In this document: in pieces, positions 1,818 to 47,885 of the stretch
How the letters are laid out: the number at the start of each line of letters is the position of its first letter
Numbering within the stretch: position 1 is the first letter of the stretch
DNA from: a virus
Taxonomy: Duplodnaviria; Heunggongvirae; Uroviricota; Caudoviricetes
IMG/VR virus record: IMGVR_UViG_3300031760_000016
Span: 43,455-107,454 of that record
DNA: 64,000 bases
Direction: 5' to 3' (one strand)
Translations under genes and position numbers: made by a program
Notes under the pieces: generated by a model
Seen by the model: only the letters and a program-made list of their open reading frames with translations
Told to the model about the DNA's origin: nothing
The model's database searches: none

Positions 1818-4800
1818 ATGCAAATGAGTAAATCAAGATACCTTGGCCTGACTCTTGTCGGAACGAGCGAGTCAGAAGCAAAGCAAACTTTTCTACATTG
1901 GCGCACTGACATGAATGGAGAAGGAGAAGCCTCCAACATGCAAAGAATCGACAAAGCATACGGTGAGATGAGCGCCAACATCACGAACATCAGATCTCAT
2001 GTCGCCAATCAGGCAAACACTATCGGCGACATTGAGTCTCAGATGGAGCAGCAGAATGAGAAACTCAGCAAGGATATCGCTCTCAAGGGCGATAACCTCT
2101 GGTTTGACACTTCCACGAACCTTCTGTACCTGATGTCCGATGGCGAACCTGTCGGTGACGGCGTTGCCGTTGCTGCGAGTGGCGGCGGCGGTGGCGGTGG
2201 TGGATCCTCCAGCTCCTATACGCCGACGCTCACGAACAACATGGCTTCTCGAACCATCACCACATCAAATGACAGCCCTGTCTCTCTGGCGTTTACATAT
2301 CGCTCTGTGGACGGCGAGGGCGAAGATGACGGTCCTGGCGTTGGTTCGGTGACGATCAACAACGTTACCAAGAAAACCTTCACTGTGCAGCAGGGCGAAA
2401 ACACCGTCGACATCACCGATGTTCTGGGCGGCGGCACAAACAACGTTCGCATCAAGGTCGAGAATTCCGAGGGCGTTGCCAGAACCCTGGCATACACCGT
2501 TACGATCGTCTCTCTGAGCATGACCACCACCATGGACGAGATTGACGTCTACAATGGCGACGCGATGTTCAACTACACGGTGACCGGCGCTGGCGAAAAG
2601 ACCGTTCACTTCGTTTTGGACGGCACCGAGATCGGCACTGAGGTCGTCACCAGCTCTGGCCGCAGCCGCATCTATGTGATCGGCGAGCAGAGCCATGGCG
2701 CTCACGTACTGGAATGCTATGCGACCGCTGTTGCTGAGGGCAATGAGGTCACAAGTAACAAGATCCGTCTGAGCATGATCTGGGTGGGCGAGAGCTCTGA
2801 TCCGATCATCGCCTCGACGTTCAACACGCAGAATGTGGTTCAGGGCGACACGATCTCTATTTCCTATGAAGTGTATGATCCCGCTTCTGAGAGCGCAGAG
2901 GTCACCCTTTCCATCATCGACGAGAATGGCGATGTCTACAGCACGCAGACCGTGACACGCGACAGGACGGTGGGTGATCCGTGGAGCACGCAGAATTATC
3001 CCGCTGGCAACATCATCTTCCGCATCGGCTGCCGCGAAACTTACAAGGATTTCCCAGTGGCGGTTGAAGAGTATATCTTTCCGCTGGAGCCGATCTCCGA
3101 CAGCCTGGTGCTGGAATTCACCGCCGAAGGCCGCAACAACAACGAAGCAAACCCCGGCACCTGGTCTTACAGCGACATTGAAGCTGAATTCAATGGCTTC
3201 ACATGGGCGAACGCTGACGGCTGGATGCAGGACGAGGACAATGCGCCTGTTCTGCGCTTCCTGCCTGGCGACACGATGACGATTCCGTTCAAGCCCTTCG
3301 CGACGGATGCCCGTGAGACGGGTTATACCATCGAAGTTGAGATGGCCACACGCGATGTGCGCGACTATGAAAGCCTTGTTTTAACCTGCATGAATGGGGG
3401 TACGGGCTTCCAGATCGCCTCTCAGAGCGCCTCTCTGGCCTCTGAGCAGAGCTCTGTGTCCATGCTGTTCAAGGAGGACAGCCGGATCAACGTCACATTC
3501 GTGGTTGAGCAGAAGAACCTGAACCGCTTCATCTATATCTATATCAACGGCATCATGTGCGGCATCACTCAGTACGCCACCGCTGATAACTTCGCCCAGC
3601 CGAACCCGGTTGGAATTACCATCGGCGCGAACAGCTGCGGTCTGGATCTGTACCACATGCGCTTCTACAACAGGGGCCTGAATCGTGCGGAACAGCTGGA
3701 CAACTTCATTGTGAGCCGTACCACCCTGGCCGAGCGTCAGAACGCGTATGTCAGGAACAGCATCATGAACGAATCCGACGAGGTGGATGTTACCAAACTG
3801 CCGTCCACTCTGCCGTACATGGTGATCTCCTGCCCTGAACTGCCGCAGTCCAAGGGCGACAAGAAGACCGGTGTTTCGATTTCGTTCACCGACCCGGCGA
3901 ACAGTGCCAAGTCGTTCACCGCGACTGGCGCAGAAATCGACGTGCAGGGCACCAGCTCCGCCGTTTATCCTGTGAAGAACCTGAAGCTCAAATTCAAGGG
4001 CGGCTTTACCACCAACGGCCAGAGCTACAGCAAGTACGCACTGTTTAATGATTCGATCCCTGTCAGCACCTTCTGCATCAAGGTTGACTATGCCTCCTGC
4101 GAAGGCGCAAACAACGTGGAACTGGTCGAACTGTATGAGCGCGTATGCAAGGAACAGGGCATGCTGACTCCGCCTCAGGTGGAGAACGCGGCTGTGCGTC
4201 AGGGTATCTCCGGCCGGCCGATCGCGCTGTTCTGGCATGACACCGTGAACAACTCCACTGTTTTCGTTGGCAAGGCTAACTTCAATAACGACAAATCCAC
4301 TGAAAACGTGTTTGGATTTGACCAGTATCCCAACGCGGAGAGCTGGGAATTCCGTAACAACACGACCAACCGCTGCCTGTTCAAGAGCAACGACTTTACC
4401 TCCATGGGCACTGATAAGGACGGCAAACCGATTCCGGCCTGGCAGAATGACCTGGAGGCGCGTTATCCCGAAGACAGCACGGACTACACGCGGCTGAAGA
4501 GGGTGTTCGACTTCGTCGTTGCCCACGACCGTGATACCGTTACCACAGAAGAAGAAAAGCAGGCCATGCTGGATGACTTCGAGGAGCACTTCGAGGAATA
4601 CTTCGACAAAGACCTGACCCTGTTCTACTACCTGTTCACCGAGGTCTTCCTGATGGTTGACTCCCGTGCGAAAAACATGTTCCTTACCACCTTCGATGGA
4701 ACTCACTGGATGCCGATTCCTTACGACATGGATACGGCATTGGGAATCAATAACGAAGGCGAACTGAGCTTTGAGTATGATCTGGAAGACACTGACAGCG

Positions 4801-19772: not shown

Positions 19773-21278
19773 TCACTCGCATCGCGACCAGCCGCAGGAC
19801 TTGCAGACGTCGCAGCCGCCCTCATGGACGATCTCGTTCCCGCACTTTGGACACAGGTGCTTTTCGCCCTTTGCGGGCTTGACCGTATCTTCGTGAACAT
19901 GCGGCTTGTGAGGATCGCAAACCTCAGGGGTTTCAGGCGATCCGATCTCAGACTGCATTTCCGTCCACATATCCATGAGCGCGTTACCAATGGCTACGGG
20001 GCAGCATGAACCCTTGGACGTGTCGTGCTTGGTGGCGGAGCGCACAGCGTAAGAGGGGCAGACGCCGCAGCTGTGAAGCTGGTCTACGATGGCGAATATA
20101 TCGCACCCGGATCTGGCGGCGAGTGAAATCATCCGGCTGAGGCCGACCATGTAATTGTTGCAGCCGCCGGAGGATCCCTTGCTGAGATAGGTTTCCAGAA
20201 GGTCGCCGTTTTCCGGGTCAAAGAATGCAGTACAATGCAGAGATCCGCACCCCGTGGTGAGCTTGCGCTTCTTGCCGACCACATTATCGGACGATTCGAT
20301 GACCGCGCCGCGAGGGAGTACGTCGATCTCATTGAGTTTTTCGCTCTTGGGAGTGGGTTCTGGAGCTGGATTTTCCTCTTTCTTCGTCTCGGTCGTCAGT
20401 ATGCCGGCCCGGCGGCAACCGTTTCTGAAGACGGTGATGCCCTTCAGGCCATTTTCCCAGGCGTCGAAATAGATCTTTTCAACGTCTTCAACCGTCGCTT
20501 CGAACGGAAGGTTGACGGTAGAAGAAATTGAGGCGTCGATGTAGCGCTGCCATGCCGCCTGCATGAGCACGCGGTCGTGCGGAGCGATGTCCGCCGAGGT
20601 CACGAAGAAATCCGGAAGTTCAGAGTCGTCCTTGAGGTTGTGGGCTTCCATGTAGGTTTTTACAATGGGAGTGTAAACCTTGTACTCCTTCGCCTCTTCG
20701 TACAGGCTTTCAGTTTTACGGGTGTAGAAGTTGGCAAAGATGGGCTCCAGGCCACCCGACACGCCGATCATCGTTGACAGGGTGCCGGTGGGCGCGATCG
20801 TCAAGAGCTGGCTGTTTCTCAGGCCATACTCATGTATGTATTTTTTGTTGTCTTCGGAGATATTCAGGGAGTAGAACGGTGACTTCGCAAGTTTTTGCTC
20901 GTCGTACATGGGGAACGGGTCGTCCTGCGCTGCGAGATTTGCCGAAGCATATACAGCGGAATTGAGGATGGTGTCGGCAACCGAACGGCAAATATCAATG
21001 GATTCAGGGCTGCCATACCTCACGCCCATTTTGATGAGCATGTCGGCAACGCCCATGACGCCGAGGCCGATCTGTCTCCAGTCCCTCACGCTGTCGCGCT
21101 GCTCCTGCAGCGGGTGGAGGGGAAGACCCTCATCGAGTACGTCGTTCAGGGCTACAGTCGCGATGAATGCGGCCTCGCCGAGTTCTTCAAAGTCAAGGTT
21201 GCCGTTTGAGTCAACAAATTCGGCGAGATTCAAACTACCGAGCAGGCAGCTCCCGCCGGGCGGCAACGGTTCCTCTGC
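19773..21278 (-). CDS. nrdJ: Class II (B12-dependent, NrdJ-like) ribonucleotide reductase, exon 2
   Basis: Begins AEEPLPPGGSCLLGSLNL, the RNR active-site loop following NPC. Contains TIAPTGTLS and a C-terminal 4-Cys ribbon (CPKCG...CDVCKSCG). No small subunit nearby. The ORF-track start at 21281 is an artificial TTG. Confidence 0.7.
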   Translation of the reverse strand, partial: AEEPLPPGGSCLLGSLNLAEFVDSNGNLDFEELGEAAFIATVALNDVLDEGLPLHPLQEQRDSVRDWRQIGLGVMGVADMLIKMGVRYGSPESIDICRSVADTILNSAVYASANLAAQDDPFPMYDEQKLAKSPFYSLNISEDNKKYIHEYGLRNSQLLTIAPTGTLSTMIGVSGGLEPIFANFYTRKTESLYEEAKEYKVYTPIVKTYMEAHNLKDDSELPDFFVTSADIAPHDRVLMQAAWQRYIDASISSTVNLPFEATVEDVEKIYFDAWENGLKGITVFRNGCRRAGILTTETKKEENPAPEPTPKSEKLNEIDVLPRGAVIESSDNVVGKKRKLTTGCGSLHCTAFFDPENGDLLETYLSKGSSGGCNNYMVGLSRMISLAARSGCDIFAIVDQLHSCGVCPSYAVRSATKHDTSKGSCCPVAIGNALMDMWTEMQSEIGSPETPEVCDPHKPHVHEDTVKPAKGEKHLCPKCGNEIVHEGGCDVCKSCGWSRCE

Positions 21279-22164
21279 CAAAGAGGTATTTAGACTATAT
21301 CTTCACCCTACGCACACATCTGTAGGGGGTTCGCACTCTTCAAATCGACCTGTATAGACCATAATTCATCGGACATCCATGCCGGTTGGCATTCATATCC
21401 GAGGTAAGCCTTATACAGCATTGAAGGGACGAGATAGGGGATGATCAAACTGAAGAAAATGTTGTAGCTCTCCTTCTTGATTCTGAGCCTTGTGAATTTC
21501 CCGCGCTTGACCAATGAGGTTTTGATGTCATAGTTTTCCAGAAGAGCATCCTGAATGGTCTTGATGTCGTCGTATGTATATCGGTCTGTGCAGAAATCAA
21601 CGCGCCTGTCGGTGATTGTACCTTTACTCCGTCCGACCAGGCAGACGTAACCGTCTGACATGTACCAGTTTGCCAGACCGTACGGCGTGAGCCAGTCGAG
21701 CGCTTCCCGGGTGATTATTCTGTGGCGGTAATCATCATAGAAGTTGTTGTATATTTTGGTAAAATACGGATGGGCGAGTATTATGTATTCCCAGTTCTCC
21801 TGATGATTGCACCAGCCTGAATAATGCTCCGGCGTGTAAATGACTTTGGATTTAAAACCCGAGCAGCTTTCGATTTCCTCTGCGATATTATTGATGAAGT
21901 CCTGATGAATGCTCTTGATTCTGAATGCCCGCTTATGGACACCCTTGTCTATCATCCCGTCACCGAGTATTAGTCCTGTTAAGAACCCTCTTAACTCTGA
22001 ACTGTTCATATGTTATAGCCCCCTATAACTGTTTTTTCGATTTGATTTTAGTCGTTGAACCTTCCTCATATTTCTGAGGCTTGGCTGCTGATTGCCTTTC
22101 GGTTTCCAGCAATTCGCGAACGATTGTTTTCATGAGATTGCTCTCAAGCCCTGCGCAAAAGTTC
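21279..22164 (-). mobile_element. Group I intron in nrdJ carrying a LAGLIDADG homing endonuclease ORF
   Basis: Exon 1 stops reading 5 codons after NPC; exon 2 resumes in frame after a G. Minus strand shows Q-like AAUCAGCAGCCAAGCC, R-like AAGGUUCAACGACUAA and, near the 3' end, S-like GAAGAUAUAGUC. The HEG ORF sits between them. Confidence 0.7.
21308..22009 (-). CDS. LAGLIDADG-family homing endonuclease (intron-encoded)
   Basis: 233 aa. GFLTGLILGDGMIDKG is a LAGLIDADG motif. Own start and stop inside the intron. Confidence 0.6.
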   Translation of the reverse strand: MNSSELRGFLTGLILGDGMIDKGVHKRAFRIKSIHQDFINNIAEEIESCSGFKSKVIYTPEHYSGWCNHQENWEYIILAHPYFTKIYNNFYDDYRHRIITREALDWLTPYGLANWYMSDGYVCLVGRSKGTITDRRVDFCTDRYTYDDIKTIQDALLENYDIKTSLVKRGKFTRLRIKKESYNIFFSLIIPYLVPSMLYKAYLGYECQPAWMSDELWSIQVDLKSANPLQMCA

Positions 22165-22971
22165 ACAGGGATTTGTGCCAGCGTATTCAAAGTTCTCATA
22201 TTCACTCAGCAGGTTCCAGCTGGAGATCATGTCCCAGAACAGCATTCCGGGTTCTCCCATGTCCCAGTTGTTCTCCGCGATGTGATGGAACAGCTGCCTT
22301 GCGTTTACGGTTTTGCGAATGGTTTCGCCGGTTTCGGAGCGCGTGAACCTGAGTTCAAACGGCTCATCGTTTTCCACGGCCTGCATGAATTCATCGGACA
22401 TGCGGACGGAAATGTTGGCTTTGGTGACGCGATCGAGATCCTTCTTGATGTCCACGAATTCCTCGATGTCCGGGTGATCACAGCTCAGAGAGAGCATCAG
22501 CGCACCGCGCCGGCCATTCTGGGAAATCAGCCCGGTAACCATGGAATACAGATCCATGAACGACACCGCGCCGGAACTCGCCTTTGCCGCGTTTCTCACG
22601 ACCGCGCCCCTGGGTGCCAGCTTTGACAGGTCAGTGCCGCATCCTCCGCCGTACGAATACGTGCGAGCCAGCTTCTTGGCGCAATCAAAGATGGATTCGA
22701 GGTTGTCCTCAGGAGGCGTGACGACATAGCAGTTACTATAGCTGATTTTCTTTCCTTCTTTTGTGAGTCCGCGGTTGGCGAGGATGCGCCCTCCAAACAG
22801 GAATTTCTTTTCCAGAATCAGGCGTTTGACCTGAGGGTCATTACCGCTCACTCTGGTCACCCATTCCAGAAAGCTTTCGCCATCATTGCGGTATTTCTGC
22901 TCCCAGATGTTTATGCCGATCTGATTATCAGCGCCGAGCCAATCCTGTACCGTCATTTCTCTGGCATCCAA
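22165..22971 (-). CDS. nrdJ: Class II ribonucleotide reductase, exon 1
   Basis: Blocks IWEQKY...LEWVTRVS, SNCYVV and GGGCGTDLSKLAPRGA; ends ...YAGTNPC at the intron insertion point. Confidence 0.7.
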
Positions 22972-29206: not shown

Positions 29207-29527
29207 TTAGTAGGGCTCAAAGGGGCTGTGTTGCGTTGCCTCCTCGTACAGAATCTTGTCGCCTTGGAAGTTCACGTCTATGTACTCGCCCTCGTTCATT
29301 TGCGGTCCGTTGCGGTTGAATCGAACGAACAGCTTTTTGTTTCCGCAGACAGTCCCGTCTCGCTGAATCTCTTCTGGGGACTTGTCCTGAATCATGATGA
29401 TTGTGCTCGCATTTCTGGCAATCTTGGCGCTGTCCGCGAGGCGGCCTGTTGAGGTGGCCTGCGCCGCGCCGATGCCGGCGATGTTGAGTTCACCACACAA
29501 TTTGTTCTTGACCGTCAGTGTGTTCAT
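29207..29527 (-). CDS. dnaB: Replicative helicase DnaB, exon 2 (C-terminal segment)
   Basis: 106 aa. LCGELNIAGIGAAQ ~ LAKELNVPVIALSQ; GRLADSAKIARNAS ~ SDLRESGSIEQDAD; VRFNRNGP ~ AKQRNGP in E. coli DnaB. The 5' boundary is approximate. Confidence 0.6.
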   Translation of the reverse strand: MNTLTVKNKLCGELNIAGIGAAQATSTGRLADSAKIARNASTIIMIQDKSPEEIQRDGTVCGNKKLFVRFNRNGPQMNEGEYIDVNFQGDKILYEEATQHSPFEPY

Positions 29528-29791
29528 CTGCTTTCACAGATGCCTGGACTATATCATCGCTGCTTTCAGCGCCGACCGCTTAGTCTCTGAACCTTCCCCT
29601 GTTCGGGGCTTGGCTGCTGATTGCCCATTGAATCGCGCTTAGGATTTGACCGTACGCTATCCCGTGAATTCTTTCCGCTTTCGCCGCCTTCGCGCTCACA
29701 ACTTTCGCTGTCACGCTTTGGCTTCACGGGCTTTAGGGTTTTCCAGCAATTCGATCGGTTTTTCACGGCATTGCTACCGTGGGACTGGCCA
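29528..29791 (-). mobile_element. HEG-less group I intron splitting dnaB
   Basis: About 264 nt between the two DnaB exon ORFs. Minus strand carries Q-like GGGCAAUCAGCAGCCAAGCC, R-like AAGGUUCAGAGACUAA and S-like GAUGAUAUAGUCC. It shares 19-nt and 16-nt blocks with the nrdJ intron. Exact splice junctions are not determined. Confidence 0.6.
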
Positions 29792-30832
29792 TCAATCCAC
29801 GATTGAACCTAGGGAGGAGTACACGGCGTAGGCGTCCATATCGGACCCCGTGCCCTTGAAGTAATCGATGATCAGGACGTCAATGCCCTGCGTGTGAAAG
29901 ACGCGCTTGACGTTTGTGTACATCGTGCTTTCATCGAAGATCGGCATGTACAGATGCGTAAAGCTCTGCTGTTTCAGCCATGCGATCGCCTCGCTGATTT
30001 TCGCGGCTTCCGCGTCGTCATATCTGCCGGATCGCAGACGTTGAAACTCGATTCCCGTCAGATGGGAAATCATACGACATGTGAAAAGCTTGCTGTTCAG
30101 TTCGCTGTCGATATAAAAAACCTTGCGGCCGGCGCGGAGAAGATCCACCGCGCAATTGAGCAGCATCATTGACTTGCCTTGCTTCTGTTCAGCACCGAAA
30201 ATGATGAGCTCGCCGCGCTCGATCATCACGTAGTTGTTCAGCGTCGGAAATTTGAACGGGAAAACCGCTGCCATGTCGGGATTCTGCCGGGCTTCGATTT
30301 CCGTCCAGTACTTCTCGATCACGTCTTTGTACTGCGGAATCTCGTTCGTTGTGGAAAACTCCATGATGACGTTGTCGAGCAGCGACGTGATCTGCTGTTC
30401 AATGTTGCTGCATTCGGAGTTAAAGCAGATGTTCTCGCACTCCACGAGCCTTTGGTAAGTGTGCCTCCTGAACGCCGCATCGATCACGGCGTTCGCGACC
30501 ATCATATAATCCTCCGGCTCGCTTCTGGCGATCAGCGACGCGTTGTCGAAGAGTTCCTGAAGCGACTGGTTGGTGATGATCGAGTTGACGTTCTCGCTCA
30601 CGTGCTCGGTGCCGCGTTTCATGTTGAGAAAGTTGATGATGTTGTAGGCGTCGATCTGCTCGATGCCCTTCTTGGCGAGTTCGCAGACGGCGTAGTAGAT
30701 GTAGGCGTTCTGCGGATTGGTAAAGTAGTTCGGTTTGAGTTGTTCTGAATGGAATGTCAGTTCCGGCGTCATGACCACCGAGGCGATTACGCCCGCCTCG
30801 GCTTCGACATTCTTGATGTCACCTACTGTCAA
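29792..30832 (-). CDS. dnaB: Replicative helicase DnaB, exon 1 (N-terminal domain + Walker A/B)
   Basis: 346 aa. GELIIFGAEQKQGKSMML (Walker A) and VLIIDYFKG (H2). The ORF terminates where DnaB should continue; the rest is in ORF 29207..29527. Confidence 0.7.
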   Translation of the reverse strand: MTVGDIKNVEAEAGVIASVVMTPELTFHSEQLKPNYFTNPQNAYIYYAVCELAKKGIEQIDAYNIINFLNMKRGTEHVSENVNSIITNQSLQELFDNASLIARSEPEDYMMVANAVIDAAFRRHTYQRLVECENICFNSECSNIEQQITSLLDNVIMEFSTTNEIPQYKDVIEKYWTEIEARQNPDMAAVFPFKFPTLNNYVMIERGELIIFGAEQKQGKSMMLLNCAVDLLRAGRKVFYIDSELNSKLFTCRMISHLTGIEFQRLRSGRYDDAEAAKISEAIAWLKQQSFTHLYMPIFDESTMYTNVKRVFHTQGIDVLIIDYFKGTGSDMDAYAVYSSLGSIVD

Positions 30833-37228: not shown

Positions 37229-37301
37229 AGCTGCCAACAGGAATCGAACCTGCAACACCCGGTTTACAGGACCGGTGCTCTGCCTGTTGAGCTATGGCAG
37301 C
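37229..37301 (-). tRNA. tRNA, anticodon loop CCUGUAA (probably Thr-UGU; position 33 is C, which is atypical)
   Basis: Manual fold: acceptor GCUGCCA/UGGCAGC, D arm GCUC/GAGC, anticodon stem CCGGU/ACCGG, T arm GCAGG-UUCGAUU-CCUGU. No encoded CCA. Confidence 0.55.
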
Positions 37302-37428
37302 ATAATCACTGTCTCCAACCTTTCCGACACCGCCATGGTTCAGCGCCTTACTCGTGAAGAGACAGTGATGACGGTTGTCGTTCTCTGTGGGGCGTCAGCC
37401 CACATCATCCAGCCGCAACGACTGGCGC

Positions 37429-37503
37429 TGGTGGAGAATATCGGATTCGAACCGACAGCCTTTAGCTTGCAAAGCTACTGCGCTACCGCTGCGCCAATTC
37501 CCC
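37429..37503 (-). tRNA. tRNA-Ala (UGC)
   Basis: Acceptor GGGGAAU/AUUCUCC with G3:U70, anticodon loop UUUGCAA, T loop UUCGAAU, encoded CCA. Confidence 0.7.
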
Positions 37504-37529
37504 AGAGGCTCCCGGTTTGGGAGCCATGT

Positions 37530-38648
37530 TTAAACTGTGAACCTGATCGGTCCGGTTTCCGGACACTTCTTGAGAACTACGCGGACAACGGGGTTTGAAT
37601 TCTCGGCCTCAGCTGCAGCGGCTCGTTTTTCCTCAGGGAGCTCATAGAAGTCATCTTCGTCCCATTTATCCATGTCGATGCCGTCCGTGACGACATACTC
37701 GCCGTCTACAATTGTTGCAAGAGCCGGCGTGAATGAAAAACCGAACTGATGTTTGCGTTCAAAGTTTCTCACGCTTACCCATTTGACGCTATTCATGTCA
37801 GTCATGTAGATCTTTTCGCGCCAGGCTTCATAGACAGAACCGTCCTTGCGAATGGCCATGATGTCGAAATAGAGGCAATCCGCCCTGGAAATATTCAGGT
37901 CGTTCAGGGTTTCCTTGAGCGTGTAGCCCTGATTGAGTTCAAAGGCGATGGCTCGGAGGTAGTCGTACGGCATGTCGACCGCGCCGGAAAGCGCAACCAG
38001 CTGGTCGATTTCTTCGGAATATTTGGGGTCGACCGTGTCTGTCAGGTACTCGCGAACCTCATCCTGACTGGGTGCTGTCATGGAGAAATGGTAGTGAAAG
38101 CGGCCCGGGCGGTTGAGCATGTAGGGACTCAGGTCGCTAAGGTTGTTGCAGGTGACGATGAAGAGCTTATGACCGCCCTCGATGCCGTCAAAGAGCGTCA
38201 ACATTTCGTCCTGCGGATTGTATTCCTTGGTTTTGGCAAAGGTCTTTTCGAACTCATCGAAGATGACCACGCAGTTCTGATCGATTGACGACAAAAAGTC
38301 AGAGATGCCCGGGATTGCCGTGTTCACGACGATGACCGGAAGCCCCTCCTGAATGGCGGCCTGAGCGAGCAGGCGGACGAACAGGCTCTTGCCAATGCCC
38401 TTCTGGCCGGACAGGAGCACGCCGAAGTTCCGCTTTGCGATGTGATAGGAACGCAAAACCTTGGCGACCTTCTCGTTGGACTTGCCGTAGATCTTTTCCT
38501 CTGTAACCGCCAGATCGTCGCGGTGGGTAAGGAAAAACCCCGACATATCGCTGAACTGGACGCCATATGAGGCGACCGGAAGTGCGTGATAGGTCTTTAC
38601 GGCGTCACCGTAGACCTGGAAACGGTTGCCGGAATTGACGATGTTCAT
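37530..38648 (-). CDS. AAA-family ATPase
   Basis: Walker A GQKGIGKS, Walker B VVIFDEFE, and NRPGRFHYHF (AAA second region of homology). Start moved to the internal ATG at 38648 (RBS AAGGAG 9 nt upstream) because the ORF-track start overlaps tRNA-Lys. Confidence 0.6.
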   Translation of the reverse strand: MNIVNSGNRFQVYGDAVKTYHALPVASYGVQFSDMSGFFLTHRDDLAVTEEKIYGKSNEKVAKVLRSYHIAKRNFGVLLSGQKGIGKSLFVRLLAQAAIQEGLPVIVVNTAIPGISDFLSSIDQNCVVIFDEFEKTFAKTKEYNPQDEMLTLFDGIEGGHKLFIVTCNNLSDLSPYMLNRPGRFHYHFSMTAPSQDEVREYLTDTVDPKYSEEIDQLVALSGAVDMPYDYLRAIAFELNQGYTLKETLNDLNISRADCLYFDIMAIRKDGSVYEAWREKIYMTDMNSVKWVSVRNFERKHQFGFSFTPALATIVDGEYVVTDGIDMDKWDEDDFYELPEEKRAAAAEAENSNPVVRVVLKKCPETGPIRFTV

Positions 38649-38671
38649 AGGCAAAAACTCCTTTATTTGAT

Positions 38672-38746
38672 TGGTGCGCCAGGTGGGAATCGAACCCACT
38701 GTGCCGGGATTAAAAGTCCCGTGCCTTACCGGTTGGCTACTGGCGC
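38672..38746 (-). tRNA. tRNA-Lys (UUU)
   Basis: Acceptor GCGCCAG/CUGGCGC, anticodon stem CGGGA/UCCCG with loop CUUUUAA, T arm GUGGG-UUCGAUU-CCCAC, encoded CCA. Confidence 0.7.
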
Positions 38747-38780
38747 GAAAGTGGAGGGCTTTTAAGCCCTCCGGGTAAAG

Positions 38781-38865
38781 CGGTCGTGGTAGGATTCGAA
38801 CCTACGGACGGTTTCCCGCCGGCAGTTTTCAAGACTGCTGTCATAAACCGCTCGGCCACACGACC
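38781..38865 (-). tRNA. tRNA-Ser (UGA), class II with long variable arm
   Basis: Acceptor GGUCGUG/CACGACC, D region GCCGAGCGGUU, anticodon stem GCAGU/ACUGC with loop CUUGAAA, long variable arm, T arm GUAGG-UUCGAAU-CCUAC. Confidence 0.65.
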
Positions 38866-43062: not shown

Positions 43063-43625
43063 TACAAGTACCCCTTAGTCAATAATATGCCTATGATGTA
43101 ACTATTCTATTACGCTTCTGGCTGTTTGTCAACCGCCTTGCTTTTGTAGTGCTCCTTGGTTATGTCAGCCATGGCGTGGTATGAAGCTTCTACGCCTTCC
43201 TTCCAGCCCCTATCATAATCCCCGAAGTACTTTGAAGCGGCGTTCCAGCCCTCCGTCCAGCCCTGCGACCACGGGCTGCCTTCGCGGTATTGCGTGAAAC
43301 ATATGACGATGCCTGCCGAGATAGCTCCGCCCGCGAAGCAGATGAAATTCAGCATTGCCCCTGACATGACCACCCGTCCTTTACCGGTTCAAAGGTGTAG
43401 ATCGAGTTCAGAGTGTGAACTACGACGGAATCAGCGGACATGTCGAATTCCGTCACGGTCGAGGTGCTCATCCAGCCATCGTTGGGCGTGCCGTCCGCGT
43501 TCTCATAATACTGGACGACCAGCCGTCGTTTAGTATGCACACCGAGTGGAAACCAACAGACGCGGCCGATCCTCATGGGATAGCGGCCGTCATCCCTGTC
43601 GTAGCCATCGAGATCCGTGATGGAT

Positions 43626-47809: not shown

Positions 47810-47885
47810 TGGTTGCGGGGGAAGGATTCGAACCTTCGACCTTCGGGATATGAACCCGATAAGCTGACCGCTGCTCTACCCCGCA
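47810..47885 (-). tRNA. tRNA-Met (CAU)
   Basis: Acceptor UGCGGGG/CCCCGCA, D arm GAGC/GCUU, anticodon stem UCGGG/CCCGA with loop UUCAUAU, T arm GAAGG-UUCGAAU-CCUUC, encoded CCA. Confidence 0.65.

Follow-up and report, generated by a model that had tools for sequence, protein, structure and literature searches.

A predicted mobile group I intron with an I-SceI-like endonuclease gene at the catalytic cysteine codon of a phage class II ribonucleotide reductase gene

How could the active site of a ribonucleotide reductase (RNR) be restored when its gene is cut in two inside the catalytic loop? This question is raised by a stretch of 64,000 nucleotides (nt) belonging to the Caudoviricetes record IMGVR_UViG_3300031760_000016 (positions 43,455 to 107,454), called here the window, in which the nrdJ gene occupies positions 22971..19773 of the minus strand and is split into two open reading frames (ORFs) separated by the gene of a LAGLIDADG protein. 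All features of this locus lie on the minus strand. The intervening sequence is very probably a mobile group I intron with its endonuclease gene, inserted in such a way that the splice junction would read TGT|GCA, directly after the codon of the thiyl-radical cysteine of the N-P-C motif. The group I intron reading, which is drawn from sequence comparison, is supported by an Rfam match, by covariation in 35 related introns, by a gapless alignment of the reconstituted protein to a known NrdJ and by a P10 helix that can form only at the proposed splice site.

The exons and the reconstituted reductase

Exon 1 (22165..22971, 807 nt) comprises 269 codons counted from a TTG at 22971 and ends ...YAGTNPC. 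Its ORF (22971..22144) runs from ...NFEYAGTNPC through six read-through codons, ELLRRA, to a TGA at 22146..22144. A first-pass annotation, produced from the letters of the window, had correctly reported the NPC ending and the stop that follows it, while counting five read-through codons instead of six. Exon 2 (19773..21278, 1506 nt, 501 codons plus the stop) lies within an ORF running to 19773; its opening codons GCA GAG GAA CCG (AEEPLPPGGSCLLGSLNL) start the sequence AEEPLPPGGSC, and it supplies E271, C280, the remainder of the barrel, the TSCPD domain and a C-terminal Cys-rich tail (CxxC...CxxC). Both exons were delimited by the ORF list, the translations, the Pfam matches and the alignment to a solved structure, with the addition of NCBIfam on the spliced product for exon 1. 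The same annotation described a separate LAGLIDADG ORF of 233 amino acids (aa) with its own start and an exon 2 that begins after a G behind an S-like element, and these are likewise present in the sequence. Two start codons can be considered for nrdJ, the TTG at 22971 and an ATG five codons further in, at 22956. An AGGAGG is found about 10 nt upstream of the TTG, and the start of the gene overlaps the end of the upstream deoxynucleoside monophosphate (dNMP) kinase-like gene, whose stop is at 22953.

Ligation of the exons in silico, in which ...AATCCCTGT is joined to GCAGAGGAACCG... (window 22165 to 21278; in a longer stretch, GGCACAAATCCCTGTGCAGAGGAACCGTTGCC), yields a protein of 770 aa. This product scores 515.8 bits against NCBIfam TIGR02504 NrdJ_Z (cut-off 399.95) and matches Ribonuc_red_lgC (E 5.6e-110) and TSCPD in Pfam. 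Its best solved relative is the Thermotoga maritima NrdJ (1xje, E 2.4e-77), and the alignment between the two is gapless over the junction (TNPCAEEPLPPGGSCLLGS vs TNPCGEIGLSDYEACNLGS). The active site is thus shared between the exons, C81, N267 and C269 being encoded by exon 1, and E271 and C280 by exon 2; these residues match the T. maritima motifs SAC..., TNPCGE and EACNLGS gaplessly in the spliced product only. The prediction of a class II RNR, already put forward in the first-pass annotation, is therefore supported, and the host gene would encode an adenosylcobalamin (B12)-dependent NrdJ, the B12 dependence following from family membership.

The alanine that the junction places after NPC had been regarded with some doubt, NPCAEE being less common than NPCGE. 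Among the 120 best uninterrupted homologues of the spliced product (63-72% identity, 99% coverage), NPCAEEPL is found in 118 of the 119 that contain the motif and NPCSEEPL in the remaining one. An alanine at this position is thus the norm in the clade of the window nrdJ, and this count, the gapless T. maritima alignment and the location of P10 (see below) all argue for the NPCAEE junction.

Structure of the intron RNA and of its relatives

The predicted intron (21279..22164, 886 nt) was recognized by its Rfam match, its composition and the covariation of its core. The Rfam model RF00028 finds it at 22174..21269, over the full model (1-253), with 51.3 bits for a gathering score of 50 and an E-value of 3.3e-11 in a 5-kb search or 4.2e-10 over the whole window. 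The G+C content is 45% in the intron versus 53-56% in the exons. By blastn against deposited phage genomes, the P3-P6 core is 82-88% identical over 50-70 nt to known phage introns.

Related introns were collected by scanning viral and metagenome contigs with the endonuclease, by which 65 loci were fetched. From these, 35 distinct introns were aligned after removal of the ORF, and a structure derived from the window copy was then counted in all of them. The named P1-P8 structure forms standard pairs in 91.9% of the cells, a share that drops to 32-41% once the 3' partners are displaced by 1-3 columns. Changes on both sides are observed in 28 of the 47 pairs, and none of 500 shuffles attains the observed values. 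The earlier call of a group I intron is in this way upheld both by the Rfam model, above its gathering score, and by covariation.

The 5' splice site falls directly behind the U that closes the Cys codon. Exon 1 ends with the 6 nt CCCUGU (22165..22170), the 5' strand of P1, in which the terminal U makes a U.G wobble at the splice site, a signature of group I introns; P1 is 100% paired in the 35 introns and the U.G is invariant (35/35), in agreement with the insertion at the NPC codons that had been announced from the sequence. The opposite strand belongs to an internal guide (22149..22161), of which GCAGGG (22154..22149) forms P1 with exon 1 and CUUUUGC (22161..22155) forms P10 with the first seven bases of exon 2, GCAGAGG. 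These seven pairs are contiguous at the proposed 3' splice site, and only 0-1 pairs are left when this site is moved by 1 to 8 nt either way. The in-frame UGA that ends the read-through of exon 1 (22144..22146) is located 2 nt past the 3' strand of P1. At the other extremity, GAAGATATAGTC (21304..21293) is followed by a 14-nt tail, UAAAUACCUCUUUG (21279..21292), which ends with the terminal omega G at 21279 and has no separate P9 hairpin.

Between these two ends, the canonical helices can be followed one after the other. P2 is a hairpin with a GNRA-type loop (CUUGAGA GCAA UCUCAUG, 22131..22148), 91.8% paired and with changes on both sides in six of its seven pairs. The 5' strand of P3, GUUCGCG (22115..22121), pairs with UGCGAAC (21329..21335) across the ORF, the latter strand lying inside the endonuclease coding sequence; P3 is 93.8% paired, and four of its seven pairs have changed on both sides. 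Rfam's own P3/P8 pairing was set aside. The endonuclease ORF is situated between the 5' strand of P7 and the 3' strand of P3 (P3'), and for this reason Rfam misplaced P3' inside the ORF, while the comparison of the relatives puts it at 21335..21329. The P4-P5-P6-P6a domain, AAUUGCUGG...CAGCAGCC AAG CCUCA...UGAGG AA GG (22062..22112), contains a P6 and a P6a that covary fully, and helices 4, 7 and 8 are 99-100% paired. It is followed by the R element GGUUCAACGACUA (22049..22061), whose GACUA (22053..22049) is the 5' strand of P7; the 3' strand, UAGUC (21297..21293), is provided by the S element GAAGAUAUAGUC (21293..21304), and P7 is 100% paired. The P8 hairpin, CCCUAC ... GUAGGG (21306..21327), holds the UAG stop of the endonuclease gene; its four outer pairs are 86-91% paired, two of them with changes on both sides.

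An additional hairpin, GUUAUAG GGGG CUAUAAC (22012..22029), ends 3 nt before the ATG of the endonuclease and presents a purine-rich ribosome-binding stretch in its loop. In the count of the named structure, 86% of its cells are paired versus 27-64% when slid, and four of the seven pairs show changes on both sides; RNAalifold, run on an automatic alignment, predicted no pairs at this position. IA introns carry P7.1/P7.2 between P7 and P3'. With moderate support, this hairpin can be considered as a candidate translational control element or P7.1-type stem.

The comparison of the 35 introns also reveals how closely the guide follows its host gene. The third base of the Pro codon in P1 and its guide partner form CG in 16 introns, GC in 10, UA in 6 and AU in 3, and it is unpaired in none. 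P2, P3, P6 and P6a covary extensively, and a compensatory change in P7, from GACUA/UAGUC to GAUUA/UAAUC (C-G to U-A), is found in loci L022 and L060. Across the family, the cognate P10 has a mean length of 4.2 bp, versus 2.0 bp for non-cognate combinations. All 35 introns have an early in-frame stop, 0-12 codons past the 5' splice site, and 20 of them have it at the window's position, 2 nt after P1; this generality fits the known need to keep ribosomes out of phage introns (PMC3984707).

The 3' domain is more variable among the relatives, some of which have an ordinary P9 hairpin, and two of which (L057, L058) combine a 6-nt tail with a 9-bp P10. In about half of the relatives, the tail or the P9 loop can form a helix with positions +6..+14 of exon 2, and this helix changes in step with the exon: GUGGUUC/GAACCAC (the L001 type), AUGGUUC/GAACCAU, GCGGUUC/GAACCGC, AAGGCU/AGCCUU and GUUCCUC/GAGGAAC. 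Cognate pairings surpass non-cognate ones with a Wilcoxon p of 5.6e-5, a value obtained from lineages that are not independent. The helix convincingly appears, from these alignments, to be a feature of other lineages of the family, and it is not claimed for the window copy. There, the CCUCU of the tail can pair with the AGAGG of exon 2 (+3..+7); these 5 bp were rejected as an element of the window intron, 21% of non-cognate pairings being equally good.

The insertion site is as constant as the core. By tblastn, nrdJ exons surround the endonuclease gene in 63 of the 65 loci, and wherever the boundary can be aligned the break falls at residue 269/270 of the spliced window protein; in L009, for instance, YAGTNPC directly precedes the intron. 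The nrdJ genes of these loci are only 28-76% identical to that of the window. In the related phage L066, nrdJ is uninterrupted and the corresponding site is nearly the same, GGAACAAATCCCTGT|GCGGAAGAACCGCTGCC, to be compared with GGCACAAATCCCTGT|GCAGAGGAACCGTTGCC in the spliced window gene (longer stretch in L066: GGAACAAATCCCTGTGCGGAAGAACCGCTGCC). Such a pattern, one site filled in divergent hosts and empty in relatives, is what homing would be expected to produce. Very divergent phage nrdJ genes have been reached by the spread of the family, whose guides co-evolved with each host allele.

The endonuclease, the proposed mechanism and the alternatives

The endonuclease gene (21308..22009, 233 aa, with its own ATG) is accommodated between the 5' strand of P7 and the 3' strand of P3, and its last nine or so codons overlap P3' and P8. 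The protein matches Pfam LAGLIDADG_2 (PF03161) with 103.3 bits (cut-off 25; E 1.8e-29) over profile positions 2-168 of 168, PHROG 11023 with an E-value of 1.7e-14, and the structure of I-SceI (PDB 1r7m) with an E-value of 2.6e-11 over residues 49-201. It contains two LAGLIDADG motifs, LILGDG (D17) and WYMSDG (D119), and an alignment with 23 homologues of 53-70% identity has 54 invariant positions, both aspartates included. These matches agree with the endonuclease assignment of the first-pass annotation, and they support the prediction of an I-SceI-like LAGLIDADG protein of the monomeric, two-motif type.

Homologues of about 235 aa form at least 290 clusters in a metagenome protein collection, and the window protein itself is on record on five contigs from JGI, Logan and ENA sources. 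Searches of the deposited phage genomes (n=50,697), at the DNA and the protein level, returned no close relative of the gene; they matched only the conserved intron core and two distant endonuclease relatives of 28-31% identity. A scan of 185,579 species genomes with the endonuclease returned a single contig of a metagenome-assembled genome (MAG), and there is therefore no evidence for cellular hosts.

On the basis of these elements, the following course of events can be proposed. The pre-mRNA can fold into the canonical P1-P8 core, with the end of exon 1 held by the guide GCAGGG. As in group I chemistry generally, an external guanosine would attack after U22165, and the freed 3'-OH of exon 1 would then attack after G21279. 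The ligated exons would read ...TNPC|AEEPLPPGGSC... and rebuild an active site that neither exon encodes alone. The UGA situated six codons into the intron would free the ribosomes before they unfold the core, and the endonuclease would be translated from its own start. During a mixed infection, the enzyme may cut an intron-less nrdJ at about ACAAATCCCTGT|GCNGARGAACC, and the intron would then be copied in through repair from the genome that carries it, the process known as homing.

Several observations weigh against this interpretation. The Rfam score exceeds the gathering score by only 1.3 bits; it is marginal because an ORF of 700 nt separates P7 from P3'. At the gathering score and with default filters, RF00028 does not report the endonuclease-bearing nrdJ introns of L001, L004, L009, L010, L046 and L047, despite their intact cores. 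Most of the endonuclease-bearing relatives are missed in this way, the introns of L027 (55 bits) and of the window (51 bits) being the only ones to pass, and the ORF located between P7 and P3' is the likely cause of these misses too. The core would be of the IA type, an assignment that comes from the R/S consensus and the P7.1/P7.2 position and not from a subgroup-specific model. The window copy also has its weak points: a near-absent P9 domain reduced to the 14-nt tail, one U.U mismatch in P2 and a P5 of 2 bp, so that efficient self-splicing without protein is not guaranteed. In the protein collection, no product of spliced length is more than 72% identical to the window NrdJ. Finally, splicing of the window copy and activity of the endonuclease are both predictions.

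Four other explanations of the locus were considered. The thought of an intein, which would share the reading frame of NrdJ and leave by protein splicing, comes naturally at this place: RNR inteins are inserted most often just N-terminal to the thiyl-radical Cys (PMC2677866), LAGLIDADG domains are frequent in inteins, and the relatives L010, L046 and L004 bear inteins at other catalytic Cys codons. The continuous in-frame protein that an intein implies, a possibility also raised in the first-pass annotation, is nevertheless absent. A stop is met six codons past NPC, the 886 nt correspond to 3n+1 and hold 14, 14 and 4 stop codons in the three frames, the endonuclease ORF matches the frame of neither exon, and a frameshift error is unlikely given an identical independent assembly. 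With no Hint or intein domain detected in the Pfam search and a group I ribozyme core in place, an intein is extremely improbable. The same independent assembly bears on the suspicion that an unrelated contig carrying an intron and a homing endonuclease gene was joined into nrdJ by mistake. The window probably comes from a metagenome assembly, and the G+C content of the intron is unlike that of the exons. Yet the same 5 kb is found at 100% identity in an independent sequencing run (Logan assembly, L067), the endonuclease protein recurs on the five contigs from three sources mentioned above, dozens of other contigs have the same architecture, and the guide is complementary to the exons of the window gene itself, which leaves the probability of an assembly chimera close to nil.

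The two remaining explanations accept the intron and question its function. The intron might be dead for splicing, with NrdJ made as two polypeptides that assemble non-covalently or with the gene simply inactivated. A functional precedent exists in the Aeromonas phage Aeh1, whose NrdA is split by mobE (PMC3045599, PMC3653736), a TTG at 21281 could serve as a start for the exon-2 region, and the near absence of P9 and the slight imperfections of P5 and P2 would go in the same direction. However, the gene is interrupted within the catalytic loop, with C269 and E271 on opposite sides of the break; the TTG is itself part of the intron tail, and exon 2 lacks a convincing ribosome-binding site. All the core helices are intact in the window copy, which has a 7-bp P10, and the covariation of the guide with the host codons across the family is sensible only if P1 and P10 are used. 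Purifying selection is moreover obvious in both exons, which over 99% of their length keep 63-72% identity to intact homologues, and a gene in separate pieces is judged quite improbable. Alternatively, the intron may splice while its endonuclease is no longer an active homing enzyme, being either a relic or mainly a maturase that assists a reduced ribozyme. An intron devoid of a normal P9 domain might indeed need a protein cofactor, and the need to preserve P3' and P8 in the RNA constrains the ORF at its 3' end. Against this stand the invariance of both catalytic Asp and of 52 other positions across the aligned homologues, the occupation of a single site in nrdJ genes that share only 28-76% identity with one another, and the coexistence of intron-less alleles in related phages, a pattern expected of active homing. 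This last explanation is considered unlikely, and a mobile group I intron with an active endonuclease is preferred.

Related systems, genomic setting and significance

Group I introns have long been known in phage RNR genes: T4 nrdB (I-TevIII) and nrdD (I-TevII), Twort nrdE, SPbeta bnrdE/bnrdF and the nrdE/nrdF of the Bacillus cereus group (PMC3653736, PMC2248736, PMC3984707). The window intron resembles them by its optional endonuclease ORF, looped out of the ribozyme, and by the early in-frame stop after the 5' splice site. It differs from them by its host gene, a predicted class II nrdJ instead of a class I or III gene, and by its insertion exactly after the codon of the thiyl-radical Cys. 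Its endonuclease belongs to the LAGLIDADG family, whereas those of phage introns are mostly GIY-YIG, HNH, PD-(D/E)xK or EDxHD enzymes (PMC3984707, a review). A survey published in 2013 on 128 phage genomes mentioned two split nrdJ genes, in phiYS40 and P60, which were not described as split by introns (PMC3653736). In the literature searched, no description was found of a phage nrdJ intron located at the Cys codon or equipped with a LAGLIDADG gene. A group I intron in the RIR gene of Nostoc punctiforme PCC 73102 is reported by Meng, Zhang and Liu (2007, J Bacteriol 189:2150); that intron is reportedly chromosomal and bears an insertion-sequence element, unlike the phage intron described here with its LAGLIDADG gene. 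By their cores, the S-PM2 psbA intron and the introns of SPO1-like Bacillus phages are of the same ribozyme lineage as the window intron, the similarity being limited to the core and the host genes being different.

The closest parallel for the enzyme is I-SceI, encoded by the omega intron of the yeast mitochondrial 21S rRNA. Both are proteins of about 235 aa, monomeric (by prediction for the window enzyme), with two motifs and encoded by a group I intron, and the second motif of the window protein, WYMSDG, aligns with WFMDDG in I-SceI. The similarity is nevertheless distant, and the phage enzyme resides in a protein-coding gene, where its presumed target would be the nrdJ NPC|AEE site. RNR inteins (RIR1, and the split inteins of metagenomic NrdA and NrdJ) target the same few base pairs as the intron. 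They are removed at the protein level, whereas the intron, which has neither a Hint domain nor a continuous frame, would be removed at the RNA level.

Other mobile elements were encountered in the same genes of related phages. In relatives with the same nrdJ intron, three further Cys codons are occupied by in-frame inteins. One of them, in L010 (631-1775), occupies the first redox Cys (SNC|YVV equivalent), starts with CFMAGSKVLTIDG and ends with VHN|C; another begins at position 3237 of L046, at the second redox Cys, ten codons past the intron site, and extends from CLSGETLV to VHN|CDLGSLNL; the third is inserted at a Cys of the TSCPD domain (L004-L006, 4886-5835). The catalytic Cys codons of nrdJ are a hot spot for selfish elements. 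L022 contains a second group I intron, ORF-less (3263-3498; Rfam 101 bits), only about seven codons (GEQPLMA) past the 3' splice site of the endonuclease intron, so that two introns stand almost back to back in the active-site loop. In the endonuclease ORF of L022, near 3100, a TGA takes the place of the codon for the invariant Trp in the P-x-W-M motif (AAA CCA TAC TGA ATG) and the ORF is otherwise intact, which suggests either that this phage reads TGA as Trp (a recoded code) or that the endonuclease gene has just been inactivated. L062 (2300-3300) has a more distant endonuclease relative, of 42% identity, in a similar intron (P4 AATTGCTGG, S-like ATGATATAGTC), with an upstream exon ending ...GVNP and a P1 of AAUCCGU/GCGGAUU. 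Since tblastn of the window NrdJ against L062 found nothing, this intron may be hosted by another class of reductase or by another gene. Essential genes of the neighbourhood are also interrupted by other homing endonuclease genes in related phages. A GIY-YIG-type ORF (GYIYTITNKINNKKYVG...) was observed inside nrdJ exon 2 of L047, at about 3500-4500, and a NUMOD3-domain ORF between the two halves of a DnaE-type polymerase in L066 (504-950).

In the window, nrdJ belongs to a module for phage replication and nucleotide metabolism, where its neighbours are genes for a ClpP-like protease, PhoH, a dNMP kinase, a DnaE-type polymerase, a DnaG primase, a DnaB helicase and a PD-(D/E)XK nuclease. A second group I intron of the window (29525-29804, minus strand; about 280 nt, ORF-less, RF00028 82.2 bits) splits the DnaB-like helicase gene into an N-terminal ORF (30832..29792, Pfam DnaB and DnaB_C) and a C-terminal ORF (29527..29207). 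Its core sequences, GAATTGCTGG..., CAATCAGCAGCCAAG, GGTTCAGAGACTA and GATGATATAGTC, are as in the nrdJ intron; a quick look identified no unambiguous P1. Five tRNA genes (Rfam tRNA, 50-68 bits), at window positions 37229-38865 and 47813-47885 (minus strand), are consistent with a large phage genome.

Elements of the intron and homing type are classical in phage RNR genes. The nrdJ family is sizeable and unannotated, and it does not introduce a new principle. It is proposed tentatively, as a possibility somewhat short of an even chance, that the window intron is the first described member of a large lineage combining an intron with an I-SceI-like endonuclease, restricted to uncultured phages, specialised on the thiyl-radical Cys codon of nrdJ and extending over at least 290 clusters. 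Its RNA would have co-evolved to an unusual degree with the individual host alleles, the guide tracking all four Pro codons and P10 attaining up to 9 bp. The additional covarying helix between the tail or P9 loop and exon 2, present in about half of the lineages, would place the 3' splice site in a loop and could, in a new way, select or regulate this site in introns that have lost P9.

In practice, the intron keeps gene callers from recognizing an essential phage gene. Indeed, the two halves of nrdJ appear in public protein sets as separate proteins of 275 and 497 aa (P0065; gene calls in L067). As gene calls are split in this way and most of the relatives escape Rfam at its gathering score, class II RNR genes of viral metagenomes will be under-counted or called truncated, and automated intron surveys will miss the endonuclease-bearing nrdJ introns. 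The endonuclease family also represents a set of candidate meganucleases of the size of I-SceI, with an inferable target of about 20 bp. For the biology of these phages, the current understanding of how such elements work is unchanged; the list of phage RNR introns gains an nrdJ of class II and an enzyme of the LAGLIDADG type, one intron and three different inteins are seen, in related phages, to target the catalytic Cys codons of a single gene, and the family offers an unusually clean natural case of co-evolution between guide and exon.

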